Notes: a model not told the origin generated them from the sequence alone. A stretch of 64,000 nt of DNA from Candidatus Moraniibacteriota bacterium (GCA_016699975.1 CP064994.1:647828-711827); one strand, 5' to 3'. Positions 1 through 35,139 are shown, counted from the stretch's first letter. A program made the numbers and translations.

Positions 1-1545
1 GGAGAGCACAGAAGAAGCATACTCACCGAATATGTGAGCCTGCTTCTTAAATCAGGAAAACAAGTTCTTTTTTTGACTTCAAATCCGGCCACTTTGTTGC
101 AGGAGCGATACTGGTATCACGCGGCCGGTATCACACAGGGCATCGCAGTGTATCTCCCCGGGATGAGCGAGAAGGAGCTCCGTCATGTGCGCGAGTCAGT
201 GCGTTGTGGAGAAACGCGCTTTGTTCTTGGAACAGAAGGCGCGCTCTTTCTTCCCTTTCGCTCGCTCGACGTCATCGTGGACAACCGAGGGGGCGACGCG
301 GGATCGTTCGGTCCGATTCTCCCCATTTCGACCGCAGTCGTACTTGACGTATTCCGCCAGATTTTCAAAGTCTCTTTGGTGCGTGTTTCTTCGACGCCTT
401 CTTTTTCGGAAATCTTTGAGGCAAAATCAAACAAAAATTTTGTCGCTCTTTCTCAGAAGAAGCATCCGAAACAAAGAAAATGGGAGATCGTGAACTTGCG
501 TCTTGAGCGATGGAAAAAAAATCGCTCTCCTTTTTCCGAAATACTTCGAACACTTCTGTGCACTACGCTTGCCGAAAAGCGACAAGCGATTCTTGTGGTC
601 GGACGCTCGGGCATGAGTGCCTTCTCTTTCTGCGCCGGATGTAAGACGCTCCTTCGTTGCAGCGATTGTGGAAAAATTCTCTCGTACGAAAAGAGTGGTG
701 AATACATTTGCAACGTGTGCCGAAAACGAACGGGAGCCACTCCTTCCTGTGCTTCGTGCGGGTCACTTGTCTTTTCTCAGGTGGGAATCGGAACGGAACG
801 AGTAGAGCGTGACCTGCGCCGCGCCTTTCCGGAATCAACCTTCGTCCGATATGACAAAAATTCGAGAAAACGACAGAAAACATTCTTAGAAATCGACGAA
901 TTCGTTCACGGAAACCGGGACATCTTTCTCACCACGCCGGAAGGTGCTTTTGGCTGGGACTTGCCGCGAATTTCCCTCGTTGCTATCATGGATGCGGATA
1001 CTCTTGTCGGACTTTCTCGGTGGGATGCCGATGAGTTTGTTTTTCATCTTGGCGCTTCACTCGTAAAAACGGTAGGCGAAAATGGAACCGCGCTGCTTCA
1101 GACGTTCCACCCGGAAAACCCGCTTTTTGACTTTCTGGCGCGCGAAGATCGAGACGGATTCTTTGCCCTGTGCACAGAAGAACGAGAAACGCTTCTCTAC
1201 CCGCCATTCGGACGAATAACGACGCTCACCTGTACTCTTCCCAGCTCACCAAAACTCTGTGAAGAAGTTGACCGAGTCCTCCTCCTCCTTCAGGCGGAAA
1301 AGCACCTCCTTGCCTCAAGGAGAAGAGTCGTTCTCACCGTTTCTCCTGTGCCGAGAAAGCGTTACGGCCGAAAATTTGAAAAAGATATTGTGATTCGAGA
1401 AGAATATTCTTCGACGCACAGAAAAAGAATGCGAGAGAAGGCGACTTCCTCGACACATCTCTTTTCGAAAAAATATTTCAATCACTCCCTTCATGTTGGA
1501 GGGTTGACCGATCGCCATAACGATCTTCACCGTTCTTCCTTTTGA
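1..1545 (+). CDS. priA: primosomal protein N' (PriA), C-terminal portion; 5' end lies outside the window
   Basis: Frame 1 is open from base 1. Four CxxC pairs (CAGC, CSDC, CNVC, CASC) match the PriA zinc-binding region, followed by a C-terminal domain. Located upstream of def-fmt. Confidence 0.7.
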   Translation, partial: GEHRRSILTEYVSLLLKSGKQVLFLTSNPATLLQERYWYHAAGITQGIAVYLPGMSEKELRHVRESVRCGETRFVLGTEGALFLPFRSLDVIVDNRGGDAGSFGPILPISTAVVLDVFRQIFKVSLVRVSSTPSFSEIFEAKSNKNFVALSQKKHPKQRKWEIVNLRLERWKKNRSPFSEILRTLLCTTLAEKRQAILVVGRSGMSAFSFCAGCKTLLRCSDCGKILSYEKSGEYICNVCRKRTGATPSCASCGSLVFSQVGIGTERVERDLRRAFPESTFVRYDKNSRKRQKTFLEIDEFVHGNRDIFLTTPEGAFGWDLPRISLVAIMDADTLVGLSRWDADEFVFHLGASLVKTVGENGTALLQTFHPENPLFDFLAREDRDGFFALCTEERETLLYPPFGRITTLTCTLPSSPKLCEEVDRVLLLLQAEKHLLASRRRVVLTVSPVPRKRYGRKFEKDIVIREEYSSTHRKRMREKATSSTHLFSKKYFNHSLHVGGLTDRHNDLHRSSF

Positions 1546-1548
1546 TTA

Positions 1549-2073
1549 TTGATTACCGATACGCCTCTTTCTTCCCGAGGAGTGTTCTCTTCCAAAGCTA
1601 TGCCGACCATACTCCCTATCGTCACTGGAAAAGACACGGACATTCTTCACCGATCAACCGATCGCGTGAAGGATCCGCTTCAGAGTGACATCCAAAATTT
1701 ATTGCCCGTCATGTTCGATTCGCTTCGCGCGGCAAATGGCATCGGTCTCGCTGCCCCACAGATTGATCAATCAATTCGTCTTGCCGTGGTCGAAGTTGAA
1801 AATGAACGACTTGTTTTGGTGAATCCAAAAATCACTTCTTTTTCTCGAGAAAAAATCCTGTTCGAAGAAGGATGTCTTAGTCTTCCGGGACAATTCTTTC
1901 TTATCGAGCGATCGGAGCGAATAACAGTTCGCTATCAAGACGAAACCGGAAAAGAAAAGAAAAGAAAGGCGACAGGACTTTTGGCAATCGTCATACAGCA
2001 CGAAGTTGATCACCTCGACGGTATTCTGATCGCTGACCGGTATGAGCGTGACAAGCGAAAGAGACGAACATAA
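1549..2073 (+). CDS. def: peptide deformylase
   Basis: Motifs GIGLAAPQ, EGCLS and HEVDHLDG (the three PDF signature boxes). The true start is probably an internal Met near 1603. Confidence 0.9.
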   Translation: MITDTPLSSRGVFSSKAMPTILPIVTGKDTDILHRSTDRVKDPLQSDIQNLLPVMFDSLRAANGIGLAAPQIDQSIRLAVVEVENERLVLVNPKITSFSREKILFEEGCLSLPGQFFLIERSERITVRYQDETGKEKKRKATGLLAIVIQHEVDHLDGILIADRYERDKRKRRT

Positions 2074-2093
2074 ATTTTGAGAGTCCTTTTCCT

Positions 2094-3068
2094 ATGTCTC
2101 AAGCCACGAAATTCGATTCGAAAAATATTCGAGTGGTATTCATGGGAACTCCCCACTTTGCGGAAGCTTCACTGACACTCCTCTTTGAGGCAGGATATCA
2201 CATCGTTGCTGTATTTACGCAACCCGACAAACCTTCCGGTAGAGATCAAACCTCGGTACAAAGCGCGGTAAAAATCTTCGCCGAAAAAAACACCATTCCT
2301 GTTATTCAGCCGCTCACGCTCAAACACGAAGCACTTGAGCAACTTCGCTCGTACCGACCCGACATTGTTGTTGTGGCCGCGTATGGAAAAATTCTCCCCG
2401 AATCGTTTCTTGGGGTTCCCCGATATGGATGCGTCAATGTGCACGCTTCCCTTCTGCCTCGCTGGCGCGGCGCTTCTCCGGTACAAAACGCGCTCCTTTC
2501 CGGAGATACCGAAACAGGAATAACCATTCTCAAAATGGATCGTGGCATGGATACGGGTCCCATTCTTTCAAAGCGCTCGATTCCTCTTCTTCCCGACGAC
2601 ACTACCGAAACCCTTCTTCCGAAGCTCGCCCAGGTCGGCGGAACGCTCCTTGTGGAAACGCTCCCTGATTGGATTGAGGGACGGATTACTCCGAGAGATC
2701 AGGACCAAACGGGAGTGACCCTGTGTCAGCTTATCGAACGTGAGGACGGAAAACTATTTTGGACTGAGAGCGCTGAGACACTCTACAACCGATTTCGAGC
2801 ATTGCAACCATGGCCCGGCGTCTTCTCCTTCTGGAAGCGCGGCGGATCGCTCCTCCGGTTGAAGCTTCATCACCTTTCCCTTCATCCGCATACTCCGGAA
2901 ACCCCTCATGATCTCGGAGAAGTATTCGAACTCGGCGAACATGTGGGCGTACAAACCGGAAACGGTGTCTTGTTTCTCCACACGGTACAGCTCGAAGGAA
3001 AGTCCGCTCTCCCTATTGCCGATTTCATCCGCGGTTACCCCGATTTTGTCGGGACGCGGCTCGAATGA
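2094..3068 (+). CDS. fmt: methionyl-tRNA formyltransferase
   Basis: N-terminal formyltransferase fold (VVFMGTPHFA, HASLLPRWRGASP) plus the C-terminal Fmt domain. Classic def-fmt pairing. Confidence 0.9.
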   Translation: MSQATKFDSKNIRVVFMGTPHFAEASLTLLFEAGYHIVAVFTQPDKPSGRDQTSVQSAVKIFAEKNTIPVIQPLTLKHEALEQLRSYRPDIVVVAAYGKILPESFLGVPRYGCVNVHASLLPRWRGASPVQNALLSGDTETGITILKMDRGMDTGPILSKRSIPLLPDDTTETLLPKLAQVGGTLLVETLPDWIEGRITPRDQDQTGVTLCQLIEREDGKLFWTESAETLYNRFRALQPWPGVFSFWKRGGSLLRLKLHHLSLHPHTPETPHDLGEVFELGEHVGVQTGNGVLFLHTVQLEGKSALPIADFIRGYPDFVGTRLE

Positions 3069-3139
3069 CAATCTTCATCACGATGTGTTGGAGAAATTTC
3101 CAGTCGTTCTTCTTATTGGTTTGATAAATTCATCTTGAC

Positions 3140-4018
3140 TTGGGAGAAGAAGGTGTTCTTGACATGCCTATGGGAGATACGGCTCGATCACGCGATATGT
3201 CTGTTGTCGGAGGAGGTATTCTCCTTATTCTTGCAATTGCCGGATGGTCGTTTTTTCGCTCGAACATGGAGGAAAAAAAAGACGATGCACTCAAAACTCC
3301 TGATTCGGAAATGACTCTCCCGAACGATGCCCAACGTATCTCAATTGATGACCTCCGTCCACTCGTTCTCGGAAAAGTAAGCTCAAACAATACTGTCATT
3401 CTCGACACAAGGCCGCGCTCGCTCTTCGAAGAAGAGCATGGCATTGGTTTTCGAAGCATGCCCCTTGAGGACTTGAAGAAAAACCTTTCTCTTCCGACCG
3501 AAATAAAAGATCCCACCATTATTCTTCTCTCGGAAAACGATCAAGCGGCCGCACAGGCGTTTCGTTCGCTTGAAGAGCGTGGAGTTTCGAAAGACCGTGT
3601 GCGCATTTTCGATGGCACCTTCGAAACGTGGAAAAAAGAAACGGGACTTACCGTAAAGAAAGCGGACCCAACTTCCCCGATTGATGCAACCAAGGTGCGC
3701 CTGGTTACTCCAGAACAAGCAAAAGAAAAAATAGGGAGCGGCGGATCGTGGTTTCTTCTTGATATTCGGGATCCACATCAGTTTGATCGTGGCCATATTG
3801 CAGGCGCCACAAATATTCCGTTCACACGACTCGAGGAATATCGTTTCAACATTCCTTCTCTCGGGACGATTCTGGTCTATGGCGACAACGATCGAGAAAG
3901 TTTTTCGGGCGGAGTACTTCTCTTCGACCTCGGGTTTTTCAATACCTTTACTCTTTCTTCGGGATTCGATGAATGGGAAAAGAAAAATTTTCCAACACAA
4001 AAGAAAGCAGAAAAATGA
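3140..4018 (+). CDS. membrane-anchored tandem rhodanese-like domain protein; both active-site Cys positions are substituted
   Basis: N-terminal TM helix (ILLILAIAGWSFF) and two rhodanese-like repeats. The catalytic-loop positions read LSENDQ and YGDNDRES, with no Cys in either. Confidence 0.6.
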   Translation: MGEEGVLDMPMGDTARSRDMSVVGGGILLILAIAGWSFFRSNMEEKKDDALKTPDSEMTLPNDAQRISIDDLRPLVLGKVSSNNTVILDTRPRSLFEEEHGIGFRSMPLEDLKKNLSLPTEIKDPTIILLSENDQAAAQAFRSLEERGVSKDRVRIFDGTFETWKKETGLTVKKADPTSPIDATKVRLVTPEQAKEKIGSGGSWFLLDIRDPHQFDRGHIAGATNIPFTRLEEYRFNIPSLGTILVYGDNDRESFSGGVLLFDLGFFNTFTLSSGFDEWEKKNFPTQKKAEK

Positions 4019-4109
4019 AGAGAGGGCTCGTCTTCTCTTCTGGAGAAAAAAGCATACCATTCACTTTTTGAAAGCTCATCATTGTCCAACAAAAGAAAAG
4101 AAAGGAAAG

Positions 4110-4136
4110 AAAAAATGGCCGAGAGGGCCATTTTTT
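4110..4136. terminator. bidirectional rho-independent terminator between convergent rhodanese and groES genes
   Basis: Perfect hairpin AAAAAATGGCC-GAGAG-GGCCATTTTTT, with an A-run on one side and a T-run on the other. Confidence 0.75.
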
Positions 4137-4152
4137 GGTACCGGGAAAGAAG

Positions 4153-4182
4153 AGAGAATACTCTATTAGAGAATACTCTATT
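4153..4182. repeat. 15-bp perfect tandem direct repeat x2 (AGAGAATACTCTATT)
   Basis: Read directly from the sequence, immediately downstream of the groES stop. Confidence 0.6.
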
Positions 4183-4190
4183 ATTGATAT

Positions 4191-4472
4191 CTATTCAGTA
4201 ATTACAGCGAGGATATCCTCATTTTTCACGATCGAATATTCCATGCCGGAAATTTTGATATCTGTACCGCCGTAGCGGGTGTAAATGATATCTTGTCCGG
4301 GCTTGACTCGAATCTTTTCACTCTCGCCCACAGCAACGACACAACCGCGCTTCGAAGATCGGTCTTCGGTCGCATTCTCCGGCAAAAAAATTCCAGACTC
4401 AGTTTTCTTTTCTGGCTTCTCGAAAGAAACAAGCACATTTTCGCCGAGCGGCATAACATTCACTTTTTTCAT
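4191..4472 (-). CDS. groES: co-chaperonin GroES (10 kDa chaperonin)
   Basis: MKKVNVMPLGENVLV...GIFLPE...GCVVAVGE...DIIYTRYGGTDIKI matches GroES throughout. The ORF-track start at 4529 overlaps the CIRCE element, so the internal Met was chosen as the start. Confidence 0.9.
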   Translation of the reverse strand: MKKVNVMPLGENVLVSFEKPEKKTESGIFLPENATEDRSSKRGCVVAVGESEKIRVKPGQDIIYTRYGGTDIKISGMEYSIVKNEDILAVITE

Positions 4473-4522
4473 AGCGGTTTTCTTAGAAAGCGAATTATTC
4501 TGTTTCCAGTGTAGGGAAGAAA

Positions 4523-4549
4523 TTAGCACTCGTCAAGTATGAGTGCCAA
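4523..4549. promoter_or_regulatory. CIRCE (HrcA operator) inverted repeat upstream of groES
   Basis: TTAGCACTC-N9-GAGTGCCAA versus the consensus TTAGCACTC-N9-GAGTGCTAA (one mismatch), about 50 nt upstream of the groES start. Confidence 0.75.
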
Positions 4550-4570
4550 CTCTCTTGCCTTCACAAAAAG

Positions 4571-5635
4571 TTAAAGATTCACCACTACCTCTTGTTCCGA
4601 GTTTTCCCGAAGAATACGGAGAGTGACCGATTCGCCCCGCTTCATATCCCCAATCGCAACAGAGAGTGGAAGATCCAGATTTATTTCCTTGCCGTTTACA
4701 GCAATGATGATATCACCCATCAAGAGCCCCGCTCGCTCGGCAGGAGAGCCGGAGAGGACTGCGAGGCCTTGTTTCCCTGAAGGAGTGAAGAGAAGTGCTC
4801 CGCGATCTCTCGCAATGCTATGTGCCGCCGCATAGGCTTTCGTCAGAGAGAGATAGGACACTCCCAGGCGAGGACGACTTCCAAGAGTTCCCTGAAGAGC
4901 CTGTTCCAAAGATTCCCGAACTGCAGAAGCAGGAAGAAGAAATGACTGACTCCCGCGCGCACTGGAAACAATTCCTACAATACCAACGAGTTTTCCCTGA
5001 TAGTCAATCGCTGGCCCTCCCACATACGGCTCAAGCGTTGCTGCGTCAACCGTAAATACACCTTCCCACTTTTCGGACGATGCTCCTCCAGCACCAGAAA
5101 TATTAAACGTCTTATCCGCATTCCCGAGGAGTCCCGTCGAATAGCGATTTCGGTATTCTTCAGAAGTATTCGCAATGAGAATGAGCTTTTCTCCCGCATG
5201 AATACTTTCGGGATCCGCAAAGGAAATAGCGGGCACCGCATTCACCGCTATTTTCAGAAAGGAGAGTCCCGTCAACGAGTCGTTTCCGACAAAGGTGGCA
5301 GGATAGCTGGTTCCGTTGTACAGAAAAACCGTATACGTAGCATCTTCGAGCAAAGCAGCCTGAAAGGTGGCAATGAGTCCATCATTCGTCATGAGGACAC
5401 CGCTTCCCTGCAGCATATCTTGAGGTTTTTCGGACGATGTTCCTGCTCGGCTTATTTGAGTGCCGACACGTTTCACTGAAAGAATGTTGACAACGCTGGG
5501 AGAAGCAGGGGCTGCGAGGGTGTTGACTGAATCGTCTTCTCTCACGATCACCTGCTCCGTTTTATTGATAATAACTGTATTTTCGGACGCCTTCTGAAAA
5601 ATCCCCCATCGCGAGAATATGGGGTGCGTTACCAT
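4571..5635 (-). CDS. HtrA/DegP-family protein with PDZ domain, predicted catalytically inactive (H->Q, D->G, S->V)
   Basis: Aligns to the canonical HtrA at 7164-8228. GSGVLMTNDGLIATFQAAL corresponds to GSGFFVSSDGTIVTNKHVV, TGLSFLKI to QDIALLKI, and EPYVGGPA to NPGNSGGPL. The C-terminal PDZ is intact (RPRLGVSYLSL...). In-frame upstream sequence to about 5740 encodes a TM anchor (LVSGIGILGIAVIGGIGGIV) but has no ATG. Confidence 0.7.
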   Translation of the reverse strand: MVTHPIFSRWGIFQKASENTVIINKTEQVIVREDDSVNTLAAPASPSVVNILSVKRVGTQISRAGTSSEKPQDMLQGSGVLMTNDGLIATFQAALLEDATYTVFLYNGTSYPATFVGNDSLTGLSFLKIAVNAVPAISFADPESIHAGEKLILIANTSEEYRNRYSTGLLGNADKTFNISGAGGASSEKWEGVFTVDAATLEPYVGGPAIDYQGKLVGIVGIVSSARGSQSFLLPASAVRESLEQALQGTLGSRPRLGVSYLSLTKAYAAAHSIARDRGALLFTPSGKQGLAVLSGSPAERAGLLMGDIIIAVNGKEINLDLPLSVAIGDMKRGESVTLRILRENSEQEVVVNL

Positions 5636-6895: not shown

Positions 6896-8228
6896 TCATT
6901 CTTTTTTCGTGCGATCTTCCAGTGTGACGCGAATCTCTTTCGTCTCCCCTTTGTGCCAAATTTTCATGAGAATCGTGTCTCCCGCACGTTTCCTTCCGAC
7001 GACATCCCCCAACTGATTGTCGGCATTCATCTTTGTGCCATCGATTTCAAGAATTATATCGTTTTCCACGATTCCCGCTTTGTCCGCGGGACTTCCGGGA
7101 ACGACTGCGAGATCGGTTATCCTCTCACCGCGAATAACCAGAGCGCCAAAATCGAAAGGGAGACTATTTTCTTTCTGGATCTCCGGCGTGATAATAGCGT
7201 AGCGAACTCCCAAAAATGGTGCTGAAATTTTTCCAGTTTCTTTCACTTCGCTCAGTGCATTTTTTGATATTGTTGACCGGTATCGCAAATCCGATATTCT
7301 GAGCGCCCTGAGCCATAGCAACATTGACACCGATCACTTTTCCCGAAAGATCGAGAAGTGGCCCGCCGGAATTTCCGGGATTGATGGCAGCATCGGTTTG
7401 AATAATCCCTGAGAGGCGTTCAGGCATCTCGAATCGGGATCCCGAAGCAACCAGATTTCTCTTGAGTCCTGATACGATGCCTCGACTCACCGTGTTCGAG
7501 AATTCTCCCAGTGAGTTTCCAATGGCAACTGCCGTTTGTCCCACTCTCACTTCATCGGAATTTGCGAGCTCGAGTGCAGGAAATTCCCCGCCCGATATTT
7601 TGAGAAGCGCAATATCTTGGATCGGATCGCGCGCAAGTACCGTTGCGGAGTATTCTTTTTTGTCGGACGTAATCACGGTGTATTCCGCATTCGTTTCTCC
7701 CACGACATGTTTGTTGGTAACAATAGTGCCGTCCGACGAGACAAAAAATCCCGATCCTTCACCGATACGTTGTTTCTCGGTTTCTTGCGGAATCCCACGC
7801 TCCCCACTCATTGGCCCGCCGAAAAAGAAGGGGAAATCAGAATCATCGAAAAAGTTGCGATATTTCGGAACGTCTTGACTGATAACAATACTGACGACCG
7901 CTTTCGAACTCTTTTCCACCAAGTTTACGAGGAGCGCCTCTTCCGAAGAAGAAGTGATGATGGGTTGTTTCTCAGGATTTTGAGGAGACTCGCTTCCCTT
8001 AGTTCTCAAGAGTGGTGGGAGGGGTATACGGAGATCTTCGGCCATGCGAGGCGCCATCCACCATCCGAGGATTCCTCCCAAGAGTCCGGCCAAAAAGCCA
8101 ACCAGAAGAGCGTGAGCGCTTTTTTGAGAGCGACTCGAACGCATCGATTCTTCTTTTTCCGATACGGAGAATTCTGGCGATACTCCTCCAGGTATGTCCG
8201 TTTTTTCCATACGCGTTTTATCAATCAT
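6896..8228 (-). CDS. htrA: serine protease HtrA/DegP/DegQ (trypsin-like domain + PDZ), interrupted by a single frameshift in an A6 run near 7255-7266
   Basis: Catalytic triad present (TNKHVV, DIALLK, GNSGGPL) with an N-terminal TM anchor. The protease ORF 7164-8228 and the PDZ ORF 6896-7330 overlap in different frames. Both frames read through ATCAAAAAATGC, giving NNIKKCTE in one and ISKNALSEVKETGKI in the other. Confidence 0.8.
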
Positions 8229-10082: not shown

Positions 10083-12098
10083 CTATTTTTCAGGGTGATT
10101 CGAAGAGCTTGCTCCGTTCTCGAGAGAACTTCGCTCTGAAGAAAGGATAGTTCTCACTTCTCCAAGGTCAATCCGATCTCGGATGCGCTGAAAGGATTTT
10201 GGGGCGATGTGAGTCATTTGCCCCAAAGAAAGCGGGGTTTCTCGCGGAGAATACGCCTGAGGCGTGGAAGAGGTGGTACCACGAGACGACAATTTTCTCT
10301 CGGGCTCGCGATCAGCAATGCCGCCTGTATTTCCCGAAGAAGGAGGTGGCGATTGAACACCCTCATTCCCCATTAGCTCGGAATCTCCCCGCGCACGAGC
10401 GAGCGTTTTCTGAAAACTCTTAAAATGCTCACGACAAAATGTTGGGCGTTTTCCATCCGGTTCGAACGGAACTTCTATTTCGAGGTCGCAAACGGCACAG
10501 CGCGCTTTATGAAGTTCTCGATTTTCACGAGGAGGTGTTTCTTTCGATCGAAAACTTTCCCGATGCCCCTCGTATCTTTCGGAATTTGAAGAAATGACAA
10601 ACTCGTTCGATTCCCGTCTCGGTGGAGGAGGTGGAGAGAAAGAGTCAGAGTCATCCGATCGTATATTTCTGTAAGACGAAGGAGGAGCACTTCTGAACGA
10701 GGAGGGTTCTGCGGGAAGAGAAGTTCGCGACACAAAAGAAGACGGGGGTGATTTCCGTTCAGAAATCGCTTCGTTTGCTCGAGTGCGCATACGTTCTTCA
10801 AAAACCTGCCGCTCTTCTTCCGTGAGCATTCCCGTCCAACGCCGAATTTTGTCTTCGACATCTTGTTTCTTGGTAGCGTAGCGCTCGCGGGAAATGCGAA
10901 TCACTTTTTGAGCATTTTCTTCGCTTTCCGGGAGTTTGATAGGAGGGAGTGTTGTCGCACTAAAAGCATCCCCCGCAATCCCGTCGATCATGAGTTTGAG
11001 GTAGATATTGTACTTTTCGAGATTCACAATATCCGTCGCCAGAAAAATCGGCGAAAATTCTTTTTCAAGGAACTCTGCGTCCGTTGCGCCAACCCGAAAA
11101 CTCACAATGCTTCCAGCGTTTCCGAAAATCGCATCACGAACGGTTTCTTCCAATTGCAAAATATATTGGTTGGCAAGTACCAGATTCAGACGGTACTTCC
11201 TCGCTTCCGAGAGAATATTTGCAAAGGACTCGGTAGCGAAATTTTGGAACTCGTCCACGTAGAGATAAAAATCTTTTCGTTCGTCTTCCGGTGTGTCGAC
11301 TCGGCCCATGGCAGCCAGTTGGATTTTCGTGATCATCATGGCGCCGATAAGCGCGCTGTTATCTTCCCCGATTCTTCCCTTCGAGAGATTCATAATGAGA
11401 ATCTTTCGATTGTCCATTACATTGCGCACATCAAACGACGAAACCGTTTGCCCCACAATATTGCGAATCAGCGAACTCGAAAGAAATTGTCCCACCTTGT
11501 TTTGGATTGGAGCAATCACTTCCTGAAGCACTCGATCATTCCATTTTGTGTATTCGTCGACCCAAAAAGATTTTACGACCGGATCGCTCACGCGATCGAC
11601 GACTCGTTTTCGATATTCTTTGTCAACCAAAAGTCGCATAACACCAAGAAGCGTGCTCCCGGGATACTCAAGAAGCGCGAGAATAGCGTTTCGAAGAATA
11701 TATTCAAGACGCGGTCCCCACGAATCGGCCCAGATTTTTTTAAACACTCCAACCAATCCCGAAGCGACGAGATGTCGATACTCTCCCGAAACATGCTCCA
11801 TGACATTGAAGGCGACTGGATACTCTTGATCGGATGGATTGAAATAAATGACATCATTGATACGAGAGGGCGGGATCGCGCGAATCAATTTTTCGGCCGT
11901 GTCCCCATGAGGATCAATATAGGCGACCCCCGAACCATGTTGAATATCTTGAATGACGAGATTCTCGAGAAGATTCGTTTTTCCCATGCCGGTCTTCCCG
12001 ATGATATACATATGACGTCGCCGGTCATCGGCTTTAATCCCGAAGACACGGTCTTCGTTGCGAAAATTCGTCTTCGCAAAATAGGTCACTTCATTCAT
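10083..12098 (-). CDS. VirD4/TraD-like (coupling-protein-type) P-loop NTPase with Pro/Ser-rich linker and C-terminal C4 zinc ribbon; no TM segment
   Basis: Walker A (IIGKTGMGKTNL), IDPHGD, Walker B (FYLYVDEFQNF); the overall pattern matches the TraD/TrwB/VirD4 AAA-like fold. Residues ~470-560 are low-complexity P/S/R-rich. The C-terminus reads CAVCDLEIEVPFEPDGKRPTFCREHF (CxxC...PFxPxxxRPxxC). Confidence 0.7.
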   Translation of the reverse strand: MNEVTYFAKTNFRNEDRVFGIKADDRRRHMYIIGKTGMGKTNLLENLVIQDIQHGSGVAYIDPHGDTAEKLIRAIPPSRINDVIYFNPSDQEYPVAFNVMEHVSGEYRHLVASGLVGVFKKIWADSWGPRLEYILRNAILALLEYPGSTLLGVMRLLVDKEYRKRVVDRVSDPVVKSFWVDEYTKWNDRVLQEVIAPIQNKVGQFLSSSLIRNIVGQTVSSFDVRNVMDNRKILIMNLSKGRIGEDNSALIGAMMITKIQLAAMGRVDTPEDERKDFYLYVDEFQNFATESFANILSEARKYRLNLVLANQYILQLEETVRDAIFGNAGSIVSFRVGATDAEFLEKEFSPIFLATDIVNLEKYNIYLKLMIDGIAGDAFSATTLPPIKLPESEENAQKVIRISRERYATKKQDVEDKIRRWTGMLTEEERQVFEERMRTRANEAISERKSPPSSFVSRTSLPAEPSSFRSAPPSSYRNIRSDDSDSFSPPPPPRRESNEFVISSNSERYEGHRESFRSKETPPRENRELHKARCAVCDLEIEVPFEPDGKRPTFCREHFKSFQKTLARARGDSELMGNEGVQSPPPSSGNTGGIADREPERKLSSRGTTSSTPQAYSPRETPLSLGQMTHIAPKSFQRIRDRIDLGEVRTILSSERSSLENGASSSNHPEK

Positions 12099-12124
12099 AA
12101 GTATGGCGATCGCGATAAGAAATG

Positions 12125-13423
12125 TTACTGAAGCGGCAAATTGGAGGGCGCGGAACCTCGCTTTGCAGCGACTCTCGTGAGAGACGGGGCAACTACATTC
12201 ATATCGGGAATGTGAAACAGCGTCGCGAGTTCTGCGGTACTCAAAGCAAGCATCGGTACCGGCGAATCGGGATCTCGAAATTTATATCGTCGGAGAATTT
12301 TTCGTTGCCGATATCGGAGGCGCGATTGCGTAAAAAGATAATTTGCGTACGTTTTGGACGCGTCATTTGGCTTGAAGCCGTTGAGATTGAAATCGTTGAA
12401 TTGCTTGAGTCCTCCAAAGAAGGCCGAAATGAATGAACGATCGAAACCTTTCTTTTTTCCGAGGTAGAGCACTCGCAAGCGACATCCAAAAACGTTTCTT
12501 CCGATATTTGCTTCCAGAGCTTTCACGACTTCCTTTTCGATGGGCGTCAACTGATATTCGAGAAAGTCTTTCTTTTCAGGTTTCACTTCGGCCGAAGAGA
12601 GATCAATCGGCTCTCCCGCAATCGCTTTTGGAATCGCGCTCACCATGGTGCCGATCCCTGAAGTTATATCTCCCAAGAGAGTCGTCGGTTTTACCTTCGG
12701 TGTTCGCCCAATAATTTCATTGAGAAGCGCTTTCCCGGTATTGTAATAGTCGGGACGCAAAGGAGTAATGATGATCTGAAACCAGAGTTTTTGTCCGAGA
12801 GGAAGTTTCCCAAATGATTCAAGAAGGCCCGCGAGCGGATCAATCATCTTTCCCGTTACATCTTCCTCGTAGTAGTGATAGGTCTTTATGGGATACGGAT
12901 CGGGCTTCGTAAATTCGACATCGGCGCCGAATAAGTCCCATTCCTTGTTGGGGGCACCCTTCGGAATTTCTTCCACGTAGTCCGGCACCTCCAAAATTTC
13001 AACGTCCGCATATTGGGCGTAAAAGTACGCCTCGATCAGATTGCGGAATGAGGCAGGAGTACGAACATAGAGATGCGATCCTGTTGCCCCGTCCCCAGTA
13101 AGTTCGAAACTAATAAAGGGAGGGAGGTACCCCTGAACAAACGACTCGACGGTCGTTGGTGATTTGTCGACTCCCGCAATGCCATCAAAAATCGTTTCCA
13201 TCACCTTCGGACTCTTTTCGACGTTTCGAGGGGGAATGATTTCCAGGAGAACCGTTTTTATATTCCCGATATACTGATCCTGGATATAATCCATCCAGAG
13301 AAATTTGAAGACAAAATAAAGCGCGGGAGGAAAAACAAAAAACCACACGTGTCCGATAACACCAAAAATATCGGAAAGTGCTTGAAATATATCGTGGGGC
13401 GCCTGAGAGAAGAACGTGCTCAT
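12125..13423 (-). CDS. hypothetical membrane protein with two N-terminal TM helices and a large soluble domain; co-operonic with the ATPase
   Basis: Hydrophobic N-terminus (VWFFVFPPALYFVFKFLW). Its 26-nt gap to the ATPase gene suggests one operon. No recognisable catalytic motif. Confidence 0.45.
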   Translation of the reverse strand: MSTFFSQAPHDIFQALSDIFGVIGHVWFFVFPPALYFVFKFLWMDYIQDQYIGNIKTVLLEIIPPRNVEKSPKVMETIFDGIAGVDKSPTTVESFVQGYLPPFISFELTGDGATGSHLYVRTPASFRNLIEAYFYAQYADVEILEVPDYVEEIPKGAPNKEWDLFGADVEFTKPDPYPIKTYHYYEEDVTGKMIDPLAGLLESFGKLPLGQKLWFQIIITPLRPDYYNTGKALLNEIIGRTPKVKPTTLLGDITSGIGTMVSAIPKAIAGEPIDLSSAEVKPEKKDFLEYQLTPIEKEVVKALEANIGRNVFGCRLRVLYLGKKKGFDRSFISAFFGGLKQFNDFNLNGFKPNDASKTYANYLFTQSRLRYRQRKILRRYKFRDPDSPVPMLALSTAELATLFHIPDMNVVAPSLTRVAAKRGSAPSNLPLQ

Positions 13424-13558: not shown

Positions 13559-14362
13559 TTATTCAAAACGAAGCGGTTCCTTCAAAAAATACCGATTCTC
13601 TCCGACTCGCGCAAAAAAGGAGTTGAGATTGATGACAATGGTTGATTCTTTGACGTCGCGCACCTTCAGCACTTCGGCGATAAGTTCTTCGCGCTTGAGC
13701 GGCTTTTTCTTTTCCCGGAGAACTTCTTCCAGAACTTCTCGTACGGTACCGCGGCGATATCCCCATTCGACGAGCGCATATGTTCCGCGGCCCACCAGGA
13801 CAAAACGCTTGTCTTTGATGAGTTCGTTGTGAACCGTTTGAGGATGCGTAGTGCGACCTGGCTTTTGGAGTCCTTTCGCATCAATCCGTTCGGCGATTTC
13901 TCGAAAATGAAGTGGTTTTCCTTCAGCTTCAACCACAAGATAGGCTCGCTCTTTCGTACCGCGCGGACAAATATCACTCCAGGAAGGAAATCCCCATCGA
14001 TCAAACGGATTTTTTTGGACCCCTTTCGAAACTGACAGAAAGCCTCGCATTTCTTCCTCGCTCATCTCCTCTGAAGGCGAGCGTTTTTTAAGAGCATGGA
14101 GGAGTTCCTTTTCAGCGATTGATGTCTTTCGGTCCGTAAAAAACTGGAGGACCGATTCGTTGAAGGATTCCCATTTCGAAAGATCGAATGACGAGAGAAG
14201 AACCGAAGGACGAAGTGATGGCGTTTCTTTCAAAAAAAATCGATCGGATAGAACCGCAAGAAAAAAACGAACAGCGCCCCGCTCTTTGGAATTGTCTCCT
14301 GCAATCGCTTCGAAAAACGCTTCTTTTTTTCGAGTATACCATGCGACTTTTTGAGCGTCCAT
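13559..14362 (-). CDS. tandem HARE-HTH domain DNA-binding protein; possibly the C-terminal part of the overlapping upstream ORF
   Basis: Two copies of the HARE-HTH signature (KPLHFREIAERI...RFVLVGRGTYALVEWGY and KPLKREELIAEVL...FFARVGENRYFL). Confidence 0.55.
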   Translation of the reverse strand: MDAQKVAWYTRKKEAFFEAIAGDNSKERGAVRFFLAVLSDRFFLKETPSLRPSVLLSSFDLSKWESFNESVLQFFTDRKTSIAEKELLHALKKRSPSEEMSEEEMRGFLSVSKGVQKNPFDRWGFPSWSDICPRGTKERAYLVVEAEGKPLHFREIAERIDAKGLQKPGRTTHPQTVHNELIKDKRFVLVGRGTYALVEWGYRRGTVREVLEEVLREKKKPLKREELIAEVLKVRDVKESTIVINLNSFFARVGENRYFLKEPLRFE

Positions 14363-14664
14363 TCGATTCGTTTCGCTACTTCTTCAAGCGGAGAAGAGGT
14401 GCGTTTCCCACGAACATCACGCAAAAGACCAGAAACGATCTGGCGAATACGCTCCCGCGTAATGCCATATGTCTTCCCGATTTCTTCAAGTGTCATCGGC
14501 GGCTTTCCCGTCGCCCCATAACGCGCCGATACAATCGCCAAAGCCCTCGGTGAGATCGAATGGAGAAACCGGCGAAATGCGGCGGAATAAAACGGAGAGA
14601 GAGAAGAACCATCTTTCTTTGGAGCCTTCCCGATACCGAGAGGCAGAGATCGCGAGGGAGTCAT
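14230..14664 (-). CDS. sigma-70 region-4-like HTH protein; overlaps the HARE-HTH ORF by 133 nt in another frame with an A7 run in the overlap
   Basis: MTLEEIGKTYGITRERIRQIV matches the sigma-70 region 4 HTH. The overlap contains CGAAAAAAAGAA. Confidence 0.45.
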   Translation of the reverse strand: MTPSRSLPLGIGKAPKKDGSSLSPFYSAAFRRFLHSISPRALAIVSARYGATGKPPMTLEEIGKTYGITRERIRQIVSGLLRDVRGKRTSSPLEEVAKRIEWTLKKSHGILEKKKRFSKRLQETIPKSGALFVFFLRFYPIDFF

Positions 14665-14797
14665 AGGAAAATGAAACAGAAAGAATACAAGACAACGTGT
14701 CCCGGCATATTAGCGCACATTCCATTTTTTTGTCAAGATTAAAGAAAGAGAGGCTCTTCCCTCCCTCACTTTTCGCGAAGAAATCGAGGGAGGAGTT

Positions 14798-30877: not shown

Positions 30878-30954
30878 GTGGACAATGCTGGACTCGAACC
30901 AGCGACCCCTGCAATGTGAATGCAGTGCTCTAACCAACTGAGCTAATTGTCCAC
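30878..30954 (-). tRNA. tRNA-Val (anticodon CAC)
   Basis: Cloverleaf folded by hand from the reverse-complement GTGGACAATTAGCTCAGTTGGTTAGAGCACTGCATTCACATTGCAGGGGTCGCTGGTTCGAGTCCAGCATTGTCCAC. Acceptor stem is 7 bp; the anticodon loop TTCACAT gives anticodon CAC. No CCA is encoded. Confidence 0.75.
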
Positions 30955-31313
30955 GAACGGACAGACGATCCGACTTCTTCTCAATCGGAGCTATCTTACC
31001 AGGGAATCCCCTGTGTGGCAACTCCTATTTCCCCCGTCCCACTCCTTCCTACAGACTCATTGAGGAGGAGCATATTCAAAACAAAGAGAGCAATAAAAAT
31101 AGGCTCACTCTATTCTCAGAGCAAGAACTGCAGAAGCGAAATACTGAAAATCTCAACTCATGAAACAGATACGCGAGAGACTCAAGAGAAGAAAGATCTC
31201 GCCTCCTTTGATTCGGACAGAGCGACTGATTCTGCCTCTTCATGAGAAGGAGTCCGCAGAAAAATATGAGCGAGCTTCGAAGTGAAATTTCGAGAGGAAT
31301 GCCATTTGCTTTG

Positions 31314-31760
31314 TTACTTCTTACTCTCGTACTGCTTCAGATTACCGAAATCTCCGAACAAACAAATCGGATCCATGGCTTCGATCTCATCCATATACGA
31401 GAGTCCCACCGGCATATCGTTCAGAAAAAATATTTTTTTGTAATGAACATATGCTTGTCCCATTTCTATAAGCACATTTCCACCAATATAATTTTTTATG
31501 CCATGTTTTTCACTATTCACAATGAGTACGGCATCGCTTTCACAAATATGTTTGTAGTGCTCATGGAGATAATTATTTTCTCGTTTCAATGCAGCCCTTT
31601 CCCCATTTTGCCACCTTGCTACATGCTCTTGTTTCTCTCCTCGAACGAATGCTTCGTAGTGAGGATGTATCCAACTGTTATATCCCAAAGCGCGGAGTTT
31701 ATTTTTCACTTGAACCATCTCTTCCATGAAGCTCGTACTCCCTAACACATATATTTTCAT
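31314..31760 (-). CDS. nucleoside 2-deoxyribosyltransferase-like (Rossmann-like) protein
   Basis: MKIYVLGSTS...LIVNSEKHG...IGGNVLIEMGQAYVHYKKIFFL resembles the NDT / nucleoside-deoxyribosyltransferase-like family pattern. Confidence 0.45.
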   Translation of the reverse strand: MKIYVLGSTSFMEEMVQVKNKLRALGYNSWIHPHYEAFVRGEKQEHVARWQNGERAALKRENNYLHEHYKHICESDAVLIVNSEKHGIKNYIGGNVLIEMGQAYVHYKKIFFLNDMPVGLSYMDEIEAMDPICLFGDFGNLKQYESKK

Positions 31761-32245
31761 AATAAAGTGGTTTCATCTTACTTCTAATGAAGCTTACATG
31801 CGACTATGCGACACGCCTCTCAAGCCGTAGCTAAAGATACTCTCGGTGTATGGATGCTGAATGGGCGGCTCGCGGAAAAAGTCGTCTGCAAAATTTGCCG
31901 CATTCACCTCTTCCCAATCTCAGTGTATCAAAAGATAAAAAAATTGAGAAAAGAAAAACCCCGCACTCCCCTTCGGTATAATGCGGGGCTCAAAGGACTT
32001 GGTATTATATTAAAGAGTTTAAAAAAACTATCCCAATTCTTCCGTCCCTCGCATTCTCCCCCAAAACCCGCACGAAAGCCTCAGTGATTTGAAAGAGAAT
32101 TATCCCTCAATTAATTAATGAGAGTTTCGTTTAGTCTGACAGAAAACGAATAAATAATTTTTAGTAGGAATAGAAGAAGTAATAAACCTCCCTGCGCTCT
32201 TGGCACAGGGTATATGTGGTATGAACTAGAACAAGCTAAAATAAA

Positions 32246-32282
32246 AGACCCGCGTAATCATCCTCAGAAGATCTACGCGGGT
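32246..32282. other. 10-bp perfect-stem hairpin (GACCCGCGTA-N17-TACGCGGGTC) in an ORF-free region
   Basis: Read directly from the sequence. No T-tract follows, so it is not a canonical terminator. Confidence 0.4.
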
Positions 32283-32768
32283 CGAGGATGCGTCACTACT
32301 GTGAACACTGCTCATGCATGGAAGTGTCTTTCTGATAAAAGAACTGAAAGGCTAGCAGGAGTGAGGATAGCTATTAAGTAAATAGTTTTTGTAAAGCAGA
32401 GTCTTGTATCACTGCGTGACTTCCTCCATAGACGATAAAAATTCTTTTATGAATCTTTTTCGCTTCTGCTATGTCACTGACAATCTTTCTGTCACAAAAG
32501 TAAGTTGAGGGTGCACCAATACGATTCACGATGGTTTATTTTTCCCTTTTTCCTTCCCAGGGTATGGGATCAATATGATCTTTAACTTTTGAATCATTAA
32601 GAGTAAGGCTCCCCGTCCCCTGATTTCAGTTCAAAAAAACATGAGGAACTGAATGTTTCGTACGGCTCTATTCTTCCGCCGCGACATGATGCTCGACAAG
32701 ACGGGCTCAAGTGACCCCTGCTTTCTTTCCACTGGTGTAAACTTTGGCTCGTGCTCCAGTGTCTATAT

Positions 32769-33036
32769 TTTGTGGTGTTTGTTTGAAAAAGTTAGAACCC
32801 ATTTCGAGCAGAACCCTGATTGACTTCGCACGCGCGGAGCGCGTGGTGGCTCTATACTGCATTGTACGCTCCGATTGCGTGGTGATGCGAACTAATGCGC
32901 CTCGGACACGCTCGCGGACTCGCGTGTGCAAAAACCAAAAAATTTCCTTGCATTTTTCTCGCGTCTCCTCCCCCCACCCCTCCACCGCGAAGCGGAAAAA
33001 GAAATGGAAAGGAAATTTTTGGTTTTGCTTCGCCGT
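32769..33036. repeat. left copy of ~267-bp inverted repeat pair A
   Basis: Reverse-complement of 34644-34910. Differences are limited to one substitution and the length of a poly-C tract. Confidence 0.85.
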
Positions 33037-33323
33037 TTCAGTCTCCGAAAAGAGCAATCTTATTTTAACATTTTTGTTTGCTCTTTTCTCCACCCTCACG
33101 GCGACCGAGGCGCACCCATATCCGCGTTTGGTGGTAGCTCTAAACTTTATGGCTTCGACGGCGGACAGCGGTAACTCAATAAGTGGATTGTGCTCGGCAC
33201 AAACAAATCTGTATGTGCTTGCCCCGCCCACCCAGGCGCGCACAACAATCTCCACCGTTTTTAGGAAAAATTATAAAACGGCGGGGATTGCTCCCTAGAA
33301 TCAAAGAACTCGATTTCGAATTC

Positions 33324-33626
33324 CTATTTTGTATCTTTCCAATTCCACCACTTCAATTTTTCAGGGTCTGGATTTTTACATTCAGCAAAATATACAGCAC
33401 AGCGAAATACATACAAGACACAGCGGTCAATATGTGCACCTCTTTGTCGTTCCAAATTCTTGTACAACGTCTCTGGATTTTTCCCGACTAAATTAGAGAC
33501 GGAAAGTATTCCGAGGTCATTCAAATCTTTAGACAATGACGGCCCAACGCCTGGTATTGTCTGGAGATTTTTATTGCCCACCCTCTTAATTTTCTTTTGG
33601 TTGGGAAAACGCGAGTACATAGCCAT
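33324..33626 (-). CDS. TfoX C-terminal-domain-like helix-hairpin-helix protein
   Basis: LQTIPGVGPSLSKDLNDLGILSVSNLVGKNPETLYKNL is the TfoX_C / HhH DNA-binding pattern. An internal Met was chosen as the start. Confidence 0.5.
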   Translation of the reverse strand: MAMYSRFPNQKKIKRVGNKNLQTIPGVGPSLSKDLNDLGILSVSNLVGKNPETLYKNLERQRGAHIDRCVLYVFRCAVYFAECKNPDPEKLKWWNWKDTK

Positions 33627-33963
33627 TGCAGTCTTTGATTGCAAACTCTTGTGAACCATAAAAAGTAGTGTGCATCTTTTGAACAATCTCCGTTTTGTCC
33701 TTCAAGTTATTGTGGAGTTCTTGGATATCTTCTACTTCGATGTATAGCGTGAACGAACCACCAATAGGAACACCTTTAAGTATCGCAGTTTCTTCTTCCA
33801 ATGAGGCACGAAGTTGAAACATAAATCTCCGCTTCACAGGCTCGTGATTTTGAAGGATTTTTTGTGTATGGAATTTTGACGATTTCCTGAGCACCAAGAG
33901 CTTTTGTAACTCAAGTGTTGCGTCAACATCTTCAACCATTAAGTTTGTGGTAAGTTTTTTCAT
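33586..33963 (-). CDS. VOC/glyoxalase-bleomycin-resistance-fold protein
   Basis: TTNLMVEDVD...YIEVEDIQELH...EFAIKDCNGYVL matches the paired beta-alpha-beta-beta-beta modules of VOC proteins. Confidence 0.5.
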   Translation of the reverse strand: MKKLTTNLMVEDVDATLELQKLLVLRKSSKFHTQKILQNHEPVKRRFMFQLRASLEEETAILKGVPIGGSFTLYIEVEDIQELHNNLKDKTEIVQKMHTTFYGSQEFAIKDCNGYVLAFSQPKEN

Positions 33964-34011
33964 AGGTTAATCTTAGCAAATTTATGGTCAATCACAAAAA
34001 AATTGAGAATC

Positions 34012-34344
34012 TTATTTTCTCAGTTTTTTCTTTTTTGGCGGCAATATGTTTTCGGCAGTAATACGAATTAATTCACTCAACCATTCGCGGTCTTCAATCC
34101 GATCTTCGTCAATCTCCATTGACGGCTTGGCACCTGGATAAGGGATTCCTTCCTTGTAAAATTTACTAACAAATTCTTTTCCAGCATCAGTGATTTTTAT
34201 GAAAAGAATATCATCACAAATCACGCCGACAACTTTGTTGTTGCAATATAGCGCATACTCACCAAACATTTTTCGAGCTGAAACATTACCGATTGATATC
34301 AGTTGGTCTTGAATATAATCAATAGTTGATTGTTTTGTTGCCAT
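34012..34344 (-). CDS. TfoX N-terminal-domain protein
   Basis: RKMFGEYALYCNNKVVGVICDDILFIKI matches the TfoX_N core. Confidence 0.55.
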   Translation of the reverse strand: MATKQSTIDYIQDQLISIGNVSARKMFGEYALYCNNKVVGVICDDILFIKITDAGKEFVSKFYKEGIPYPGAKPSMEIDEDRIEDREWLSELIRITAENILPPKKKKLRK

Positions 34345-34364
34345 AATTGTTCACTTGATTAGAT

Positions 34365-34571
34365 TTATTTCAACAGTTCATCTACCGAAACACCGAGAGC
34401 TTTGGCGATTCGCTCAATCGTTGAAAGTGTCGGATTTTGTTTCCCCGATTCGATAGTGCTGATATACGCACGGTCAACGCCAAGCTCTCGGCATATATCG
34501 CCCTGCGACATATGCTTTCGTGCTCTGATTTTCTTCATATTTGCGGCAAGTTTTTTCGATGTTTCGGACAT
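34365..34571 (-). CDS. XRE-family helix-turn-helix transcriptional regulator (68 aa)
   Basis: MSQGDICRELGVDRAYISTIESGKQNPTLSTIERIAKALGVSVDELL is the classic Cro/C1 HTH. The rest of the 233-aa ORF-track entry lies inside repeat A. Confidence 0.7.
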   Translation of the reverse strand: MSETSKKLAANMKKIRARKHMSQGDICRELGVDRAYISTIESGKQNPTLSTIERIAKALGVSVDELLK

Positions 34572-34643
34572 AGTGATATTTGAAGTATAACCAATGTTGT
34601 GTCTTGACTCAATGGTGTGATAAAATACAATATATCTATGACT

Positions 34644-34910
34644 ACGGCGAAGCAAAACCAAAAATTTCCTTTCCATTTCTTTTTCCGCTTCGCGGTGGAG
34701 GGGGGGGGAGGAGACGCGAGAAAAATGCAAGGAAATTTTTTGGTTTTTGCACACGCGAGTCCGCGAGCGTGTCCGAGGCGCATTAGTTCGCATCACCACG
34801 CAATCGGAGCGTACAATGCAGTATAGAGCCACCACGCGCTCCGCGCGTGCGAAGTCAGTCAGGGTTCTGCTCGAAATGGGTTCTAACTTTTTCAAACAAA
34901 CACCACCAAA
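34644..34910. repeat. right copy of inverted repeat pair A
   Basis: Reverse-complement of 32769-33036. Confidence 0.85.
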
Positions 34911-35035: not shown

Positions 35036-35139
35036 CACAAGCTAACGCTTGTTCTGTGCTTCGCACAGAAGCCGATGCGGAGAGATTACAAATTATCGGT
35101 GTAATGCAAAACCTTTTATCAATTTAATTCCCGAAGCTC

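Follow-up and report, generated by a model that had tools for sequence, protein, structure and literature searches.

A split DUF8128-ATPase pair of Patescibacteria as a candidate membrane-anchored motor of the VirB4/VirD4 superfamily

We analyzed a 64,000-nucleotide stretch of a Candidatus Moraniibacteriota bacterium genome (GCA_016699975.1 CP064994.1:647828-711827), which we refer to as the window, and focused on two adjacent minus-strand genes that encode a membrane protein of the DUF8128 family and a soluble VirD4-like ATPase with a zinc-ribbon tail. Judged by sequence comparison, the pair is the split form of a single two-module protein, because natural fusions of the two halves exist and the pair is strictly conserved. 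We interpret it as a membrane-anchored ATPase of the VirB4/VirD4 superfamily that was exapted as a motor largely independent of type IV secretion systems (T4SSs), and we put the probability of this interpretation at roughly 0.55. The translocase probably acts on nucleic acid, and its independence from T4SSs is possible. An earlier note on this DNA had described the two genes as a split or re-purposed coupling system, a view with which the natural fusions and the unbroken pairing reported below agree. The two genes and their parts are laid out as follows (coordinates in the window; aa, amino acids; ORF, open reading frame):

12125..13423, minus strand: DUF8128 partner gene (432 aa), from the window ORF call
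13292..13369, minus strand: single transmembrane (TM) segment of DUF8128, aa ~19-44 (Kyte-Doolittle maximum 1.67; AlphaFold2 helix)
12134..12250, minus strand: conserved C-terminal motif of DUF8128 (LSTAELATLFHIP...AP.NLP), from alignments and fused junctions, with invariant A400, H404 and P406
10083..12098, minus strand: ATPase gene (671 aa), from the window ORF call
10809..12098, minus strand: ATPase core, aa 1-430, a VirD4/VirB4-superfamily RecA-like domain with a putative helical insertion (Pfam and NCBIfam matches; fold of the fused homologue)
11976..11999, minus strand: Walker A motif GKTGMGKT, aa 34-41, invariant in the family alignment
11250..11267, minus strand: Walker B motif YLYVDE, aa 278-283, ahead of the family signature FQNF (motif and alignment)
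10521..10808, minus strand: low-complexity linker rich in S, P and R, aa 431-526 (S 22%, R 15%, P 14%)
10413..10520, minus strand: zinc ribbon of the zf_Tbcl_2 / CxxC-x17-CxxC type, here CAVC-x17-CREH (Pfam and NCBIfam)
10083..10412, minus strand: C-terminal tail of low complexity, aa 563-671, with the stop codon (by composition)

The DUF8128 gene lies upstream, separated from the ATPase gene by a gap of 26 nt in which a signal scan found no terminator-like site. A search with the partner retrieved 80 genome loci, mostly of Moraniibacteriota with a few of other Patescibacteria, 79 of which had room for an ATPase gene. In 79/79 of these the ATPase gene follows directly downstream in the same orientation, so that the adjacency is far beyond chance. 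Gene-neighbourhood conservation across related genomes, which the earlier note had proposed as a check, is thus borne out, and its placing of the module as typical of small-genome episymbionts fits with relatives found across Patescibacteria. Across the related loci the ATPase core is ~80% identical where DUF8128 is ~50% identical.

Fused relatives reveal the order of the two modules. The ATPase matched phrog_5156 (5e-62) in the C-terminal half only of an 824-position profile, and its best phage relative, gp156 of Bacillus phage G (825 aa, annotated PF26449), carries the ATPase in its C-terminal half and aligns to the DUF8128 profile over residues 29-320 (hhalign probability 98.3%, E 1.4e-14). 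A query with gp156 brought up many Patescibacteria proteins, 725-1140 aa long, in which PF26449 and PF10412 occur together. In the fused homologue P0484, aa 318-725 are 53% identical to aa 3-412 of the window ATPase, and the window DUF8128 aligns to the N-terminus. The split point corresponds to the linker that follows the DUF8128 end 'EELAT..H.P...AP.NLP', and in fused relatives this conserved C-terminal motif leads straight into the ATPase. As a side observation, gp156 of phage G (L084, NC_023719.1 87975-97114; gp156 at 2885..5362) is directly preceded by gp155 (1220..2869), a VirB4-like ATPase by Pfam (P-loop_TraG, AAA_10 and a weak CagE_TrbE_VirB match), and SPO1-like, CP-51-like and other Bacillus phages carry relatives that are annotated 'MsbA-like' or hypothetical.

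The fused homologues in phage G, in SPO1-like and CP-51-like phages and in phrog_5156 raise the question of whether the pair belongs to a prophage or another mobile element. We regard this as the least probable of the explanations considered, with hardly any likelihood, and rejected the prophage reading on context: the chromosomal synteny with housekeeping genes extends across 79 loci, a scan of viral contigs for split-type patterns returned no relatives, the window shows no compositional anomaly around 10-14 kb, and a Pfam scan of the window ORFs found no integrase or phage genes adjoining the pair.

The family of the partner was assigned from precomputed annotation, namely PF26449 (DUF8128) on a 100% identical entry (P0001) and on all close relatives; the partner itself found no match in local Pfam, NCBIfam, PADLOC and PHROGs scans. 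The large domain, which the earlier note could not classify, is therefore a catalogued one, and of the two TM helices that the note had counted in the 432-aa protein, hydropathy and the AlphaFold2 model retain one. This hydrophobic N-terminal helix spans aa ~11-47 and belongs, in the model, to one long helix (2-54) that precedes an alpha/beta domain. The candidate second helix, a patch at aa 387-406 with a Kyte-Doolittle value of 1.11, was rejected: it is conserved and is modeled with high confidence as belonging to the globular domain. The remaining single helix supplies the membrane anchor that the note had expected of the upstream, co-operonic protein. In 51/52 family members the C-terminal flank of the ~25-residue hydrophobic stretch is the one richer in lysine and arginine (mean 3.0 vs 0.6), so that the positive-inside rule gives DUF8128 an N-out/C-in topology with a cytoplasmic large domain, and this topology must apply to the fused forms too.

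The structure of DUF8128 was modeled with AlphaFold2 from 69 diverse family members (mean pLDDT 89.4, pTM 0.84). All 13 PDB matches of the model at E <= 1e-3 are TrwK/VirB4 of R388 type IV secretion (E 3.7e-6 to 1e-3), at a TM-score of ~0.35, as expected when partially matching a two-domain target. Among viral predicted structures (BFVD), the best match was gp156 (3e-18), alongside proteins of Bacillus phages JL and Slash and gp155 (5e-7). Structure prediction, which had been suggested for the 432-aa partner, thus delivered a confident model, which gives the cytoplasmic domain a fold resembling that of the VirB4 N-terminal domain (NTD). The residues that are invariant across the 69 members (E107, D148, D195, A400, H404 and P406) are mainly acidic with one histidine, and their equivalents are also invariant in the fused forms; they could form a metal-binding or catalytic site, or an interface with the ATPase.

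The ATPase carries intact Walker A and B motifs of the coupling-protein type and has no TM segment (no 19-aa window with a Kyte-Doolittle value >= 1.6), as the earlier note had read it. In Pfam it passed TrwB_AAD_bind (38.9 bits vs a cut-off of 20.5), TraG-D_C (26.2 vs 22) and DUF87 (27.7 vs 23.2). Of the other families that the note had proposed to search, AAA_10 stayed sub-threshold (14.8 vs 27.5), and FtsK was absent, with no Pfam match to FtsK_SpoIIIE or FtsK_gamma at E <= 0.1. The further VirB4 models were not reached either (NCBIfam TIGR00929, 12 vs 643; Pfam CagE_TrbE_VirB, no match), nor were the NCBIfam whole-protein cut-offs of named type IV coupling proteins (T4CPs): SXT_TraD 48.3 vs 366, CD1115 32.2 vs 250 and TOL TraD 31.8 vs 647. 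Among solved sequences, DotL and TrwB, both coupling proteins, are the nearest. The zinc ribbon, already seen in the note, passed both zf_Tbcl_2 (Pfam, 37.3 vs 27) and the CxxC-x17-CxxC domain model (TIGR04272, NCBIfam, 38.3 vs 36); its ligands span aa 534-558 in the CxxC-x17-CxxH form. It is present in 72/79 related ATPases (65 CxxC-x17-CxxC and seven CxxC-x17-CxxH), the pattern being absent from the remaining seven or cut off by the locus end. Among relatives the linker before the ribbon varies from 30 to 199 aa, and the tail beyond it has a median length of ~96 aa.

The fused P0484 was modeled as well (pLDDT 86.9). Its best PDB match was full-length TrwK (E 5e-14, >820 aligned columns), and TrwB, Cag-beta, DotL and the VirB4 C-terminal domain fit its ATPase half only (TMt ~0.5-0.68, rmsd 5-7 Å). 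The helical block between Walker A and B (residues 420-530 of the model) is non-discriminating, since VirB4 has a similar bundle. Overall, the predicted architecture is closer to VirB4 than to a classical VirD4 with its two TM helices. HerA structures also occurred among the fold matches of this model, and together with the DUF87/HerA match in Pfam (27.7 vs 23.2), the PADLOC match to mad8 (5.6e-16) and weak HerA matches they could point to an anti-phage or DNA-repair ATPase of the HerA type (HerA-NurA, HerA-Sir2 or MADS mad8-like). We consider this very unlikely. T4CP profiles outscore HerA, and HerA superposes poorly on the P0484 model (rmsd ~17 Å, TMt 0.49), far behind TrwB (rmsd 5-6 Å, TMt 0.62-0.65). 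Pfam and PADLOC found no NurA, Sir2, nuclease or other effector adjoining the pair, and PADLOC found no other MADS gene among the four neighbouring proteins scanned. The near-universal, syntenic and single-copy-like occurrence among housekeeping genes is also unlike that of defence islands, and the defence readings (mad8, HerA and MzaA) were rejected on gene context. The assignment to HerA-NurA, which the earlier note had named as the outcome that would count against it, was thus not borne out, given the lack of a nuclease partner, the poor HerA superposition and the conservation of the pair.

Upstream of the pair lies a third gene, whose product combines a Sigma70_r4 helix-turn-helix (HTH) with a HARE-HTH winged helix and whose parts are:

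14230..14664, minus strand: N-terminal part (Sigma70_r4 HTH) of the frameshifted gene (Pfam Sigma70_r4, 1.3e-11)
13559..14362, minus strand: C-terminal part, the HARE-HTH winged helix and a further C-terminal region (Pfam HARE-HTH, 2.5e-15)
14324..14330, unstranded: run of seven T (A7 on the coding strand) at which the frame breaks, as located by a frame switch in a tblastn with the intact L004 orthologue
14707..14736, minus strand: putative promoter TTGACA-18-TAATAT ahead of the gene (consensus scan, 10/12 matches)

The HARE-HTH part also passed the NCBIfam model of the RNA polymerase delta N-terminal domain (44.6 bits vs a cut-off of 42). The gene is a single ORF in 74/79 related loci and appears as two overlapping ORFs in different frames in the window, where one added A at the A7 run restores the orthologous sequence ILEKKEAFFEAIAGD. 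The window contains 71 A/T runs of >= 7, and the break is a probable homopolymer error, or else a real pseudogene or phase variant. Of the dedicated HTH regulator that the earlier note had placed directly upstream, a conserved Sigma70_r4+HARE-HTH gene at that position stands; it is frameshifted here, and its regulatory role is putative, the protein being either a regulator or a DNA-recognising adaptor, as we infer.

The order of Sigma70_r4+HARE-HTH gene, DUF8128 gene and zinc-ribbon ATPase gene is kept even where DUF8128 is only 31-32% identical, and the second and third genes are sometimes fused; in the metagenome sample described below, orthologous fusions lie directly downstream of the Sigma70_r4+HARE-HTH gene at L095, L103, L151, L165 and L175. 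As far as gene order and homology indicate, the pair thus belongs to a unit of three genes that is deeply conserved. Its neighbours differ between lineages: the unit sits between smc and divIC in the window and in related Moraniibacteriota, at the end of a murD-ftsW-murG-murC-murB run in the dcw cluster of L089, and by secA/secDF in L092.

The position between smc and divIC, and at the murD-ftsW-murG-murC-murB end in another lineage, would suit an FtsK/SpoIIIE-like DNA pump for chromosome segregation or division-site clearance, loaded by the HARE-HTH protein. The strong conservation of the ATPase core (~80% vs ~50% for DUF8128) and the membership of FtsK and HerA in the superfamily are in line with such a pump. 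We nevertheless find it improbable, as the neighbours are inconsistent elsewhere (secA/secDF, pgk, topA, DHH phosphoesterase), the ATPase has no FtsK_SpoIIIE Pfam match, and an ftsK gene is annotated at least in Saccharibacteria TM7x (PMC10768705). That a t4cp homologue was reported to be non-essential in S. epibionticum (ML1), an organism with essential T4SS genes (PMC12102498), counts as neutral or, at most, weakly contrary. The supposed link to cell division (divIC, smc, dcw) was dropped on account of the lineages that place the unit by secA/secDF, pgk, topA or a DHH phosphoesterase gene.

For a sample unbiased toward the window, we searched metagenome contigs with the family's Walker-B signature, Y[VI]DEFQNF, which gave at least 120 loci (L094-L213), and classified them with HMMs built from the family alignments. 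Among the matches listed, DUF8128 is fused to the ATPase in 62 and is encoded separately, directly upstream, in 17; in a further 17 the ATPase stands alone although there is room upstream, and 31 lack upstream sequence. The family falls into two paralogue types, H and F, which differ as follows:

HARE-HTH gene upstream: yes in the H-type (the window's kind), no in the F-type
DUF8128 HMM score: ~265 bits in the H-type, ~137 bits in the F-type
C-terminal tail: ~130-140 aa of low complexity in the H-type, median 17.5 aa in the F-type (fused, without a HARE neighbour)
Form: in the H-type either split, with a zinc ribbon, or fused, ending in a stretch rich in K and R (e.g. KKKRKRTRKRK); fused in the F-type
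Zinc ribbon: in the split forms of the H-type, none in the F-type

The zinc-ribbon consensus of the split H-type proteins is C..C...I.VPF.PDG.RPTFC[KR][DE][CH], and no ribbon was found in fused forms (0/60 and 0/62, among the matches listed). In a neighbor-joining tree of ATPase cores, drawn without bootstrap, the clade set by the 27 HARE- or Zn-marked tips comprises 41 sequences and leaves out 44/52 plain fusions. Clustering of the ORFs next to H-type loci revealed no further consistent partner among the matches listed, with pgk, DHH phosphoesterase, topA and secDF genes seen. F-type neighbours, again among the matches listed, include an XerC/D-type tyrosine recombinase (8/55), gyrA (6/55) and a DUF11/PKD surface protein (6/55); examples are L140 7291..8268, L131 9081..11777 and L134 7208..9211. 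VirB4-like, PrgI-like and M23-peptidase genes adjoin the F-type P0484.

The two types also differ in their linkage to secretion genes. VirB4-like ORFs occur in 0/116 H-type flanks (usually up to ~6 kb) and in 4/55 F-type flanks (Fisher p = 0.01; metagenome part among the matches listed), a statistic that overstates the independence of the observations, as 81 of the 116 H-type loci are mostly mutual close relatives from Moraniibacteriota. We take the H-type as an exapted, non-classical motor because it follows the HARE-HTH gene, sits amid housekeeping genes and is not VirB4-linked. In the window, the Pfam scan of 36 ORFs likewise found no VirB4, relaxase or pilus genes, in agreement with the earlier note. 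Its conclusion that a conventional conjugation system is unlikely also holds, there being no conjugation genes among these ORFs and none that are VirB4-like in the H-type flanks.

The strongest competitor, which we hold as a tentative second choice, is that the ATPase is a true T4CP of a Patescibacteria T4SS encoded elsewhere, with DUF8128 docking the motor on VirB3/VirB6-like parts and the zinc-ribbon tail recruiting substrates. It would explain why T4CP-type Pfam models are passed and DotL and TrwB are the nearest solved sequences, why the DUF8128 fold is VirB4-NTD-like, and why fused relatives whose ATPase is 53% identical adjoin PrgI-like, VirB4-like and M23-peptidase genes. A survey of Patescibacteria (Quiñonero-Coronel et al. 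2025, PMC12102498) found VirB4 in 2,417/3,035 genomes (80%) and 5,713 VirD4-type T4CP homologues in 2,918/3,035 genomes (96%), about two per genome, with only 148 of the 5,713 T4CP genes near virB4. Distance between the two genes is therefore common, which suits a remote T4CP, as does the wide presence of VirB4. Yet T4CP homologues (96%, ~2 copies) outnumber VirB4 (80%), so that only one of the paralogues may work with the T4SS, and about two copies per genome fits the picture of one H-type and one F-type gene. Also against a remote T4CP are the absence of VirB4 from H-type flanks, the reportedly non-essential t4cp homologue of S. epibionticum amid essential T4SS genes, the T4SS locus of Wang et al. 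2023, which showed no recognisable coupling protein or relaxase, and the sole conserved partner being a protein of the DNA-binding type.

Several points weigh against our own interpretation of a largely T4SS-independent motor. Bona fide systems, too, often encode their T4CP far from virB4, so that non-linkage does not prove independence; the genome was seen over 64 kb only, and a T4SS may lie elsewhere; and closely related F-type fusions do adjoin T4SS clusters. A VirB4-like NTD is what docks onto the inner-membrane parts of a T4SS. The link to the VirB4 NTD is a structural one, at TM-scores of ~0.35 between predicted and solved folds, and sequence profiles show no such connection: a search of the DUF8128 profile against PDB sequences returned nothing meaningful, and hhalign gave a probability of 1.3% against a VirB4 of the candidate phyla radiation (CPR) and no similarity to the 221-aa protein beside it. 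Nucleic-acid binding by the zinc ribbon or the basic tail is a guess, and the function of the family is read from sequence and predicted structures.

With these points in mind, the pair as an exapted membrane-anchored motor would work as follows. DUF8128 would cross the membrane once, with its N-terminus outside, and so place the VirB4-NTD-like module in the cytoplasm. Its conserved C-terminal segment would probably dock the N-terminus of the soluble ATPase, because that segment is contiguous with the ATPase in the fusions. Homology with TrwB, VirB4 and HerA suggests that the ATPase probably assembles as a hexameric ring, and with its intact Walker A and B motifs it would spend the hydrolysis of nucleoside triphosphates to move a polymer. 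The disordered tail, with a zinc ribbon or, in fused orthologues, a K/R patch, would probably serve as a cargo or adaptor arm, most plausibly one that binds nucleic acid.

A bolder extension, which we consider doubtful, is that the H-type unit constitutes a Patescibacteria-wide, T4SS-independent nucleic-acid motor of the cytoplasmic membrane, with the HARE-HTH protein as a nucleic-acid-recognising adaptor. If true, it might, for example, pull host RNA or DNA into the cell or pass DNA to the envelope, and it would form a third functional VirB4/VirD4 branch, one that was exapted for a core housekeeping task in the life of episymbionts. A 2026 preprint, in which a cultivated Patescibacterium takes up host RNA, is context for this speculative reading only.

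Part of this ground has been covered before. The superfamily, DUF8128 as a catalogued domain of unknown function and the count of orphan T4CP homologues are already known; the same survey describes TrsD homologues as abundant in Patescibacteria and associated with VirB4, and states that exaptation of the VirD4-type homologues "cannot be ruled out" (PMC12102498). The term DUF8128 is absent from that paper, and 'DUF8128' and 'PF26449' occur in no paper of the literature searched. The claim of the earlier note that the module is undescribed therefore holds for the papers searched and falls short where Pfam has DUF8128 and the orphan T4CP homologues have been counted. What appears to be undescribed in the literature searched is the obligatory DUF8128 module with its VirB4-like fold, the fission and fusion of the two halves, the H/F paralogy and the three-gene unit with HARE-HTH.

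The orphan VirD4-like genes of Patescibacteria thereby gain an anatomy, consisting of a DUF8128 module, two paralogue types and a three-gene unit, and a vague "possible exaptation" becomes a set of testable predictions, namely that the subunits form a complex with a docking interface, that the tail binds nucleic acid and that the motor is independent of VirB4, in organisms that are now open to Tn-seq and transformation. The family occurs almost throughout a major bacterial radiation, may be relevant to the uptake of host nucleic acid by episymbionts, and joins a VirB4-like architecture with VirD4-like sequence signatures, which bears on the relations between the VirB4 and VirD4 families.

The surroundings of the pair in the window are housekeeping and glycan genes (HtrA, PpiC, DivIC, SMC, fmt, CTP synthase, GH94 and glycosyltransferases), and no paralogue of the DUF8128 or ATPase gene lies elsewhere in the 64 kb. 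Several further features of the window deserve mention. At 40490..48557 on the plus strand, three successive ORFs in three frames encode a Glycoamylase protein of 1503 aa, a GH94 supersandwich protein of 431 aa and a GH94 catalytic protein of 791 aa. The two GH94 ORFs overlap by 184 nt with no homopolymer >= 6 inside the overlap, and the three resemble one or two very large genes of the cyclic-glucan-synthase/GH94 type broken by frameshifts. Two HtrA-like serine protease genes (Trypsin_2 + PDZ; 4571..5635 and 7164..8228) lie within 4 kb, the second with an apparent short overlapping ORF at its 3' end (6896..7330) that may be a frame break. The region ~31200..36720 has a GC content of 0.42 (vs ~0.47-0.50), is flanked by tRNA-Val (30878..30952) and tRNA-Ala (36641..36714), and carries a Cro/C1-type HTH protein (34365..35066), a large serine recombinase (35140..36204) and an imperfect direct repeat of 16 nt (31214..31229 and 36269..36284); the region may be a small integrated element.

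Compared with known systems, the pair shares with T4CPs (VirD4/TrwB/TraD) a RecA-like ATPase that passes TrwB_AAD_bind and TraG-D_C; the helical insertion of T4CPs has a candidate counterpart in the helical block of the P0484 model, onto whose ATPase half TrwB, Cag-beta and DotL can be superposed (TMt ~0.5-0.65). Unlike T4CPs, the ATPase is without the N-terminal two-TM domain, its anchor being a separate protein with one TM helix and a ~380-aa VirB4-NTD-like domain; it bears a C-terminal zinc-ribbon tail in the window, scores far under the NCBIfam TraD/VirD4 cut-offs (e.g. 48 vs 366 bits), and has no linkage to a relaxase or T4SS (64-kb window; H-type flanks). With VirB4/TrwK/TraC it would share an N-terminal alpha/beta domain and a C-terminal RecA-like ATPase, here distributed over two genes; TrwK is the only solved match to DUF8128 (E <= 1e-3) and the best full-length match to the fused homologue, and gp155 matches structurally. 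It differs from VirB4 in being two genes, in having a TM helix of its own where VirB4 relies on VirB3, in not being encoded with VirB3, VirB6 or VirB8, and in profile terms, as DUF8128 shows no profile similarity to a CPR VirB4 or to its 221-aa neighbour and the VirB4 sequence models are not reached. A precedent for the VirB4 N-terminal module as a separate gene is found in TrsD + TrsE of the pGO1-type Gram-positive T4SS; TrsD, by description, associates with VirB4 (PMC12102498), whereas DUF8128 associates with a T4CP-like ATPase. The F-type and Bacillus phage fusions (gp156, phrog_5156) are single polypeptides with a short C-terminus, no zinc ribbon and no HARE-HTH neighbour, some of them adjoining VirB4/T4SS genes or Xer-type recombinases, yet they carry the same two modules in the same order as the window pair.

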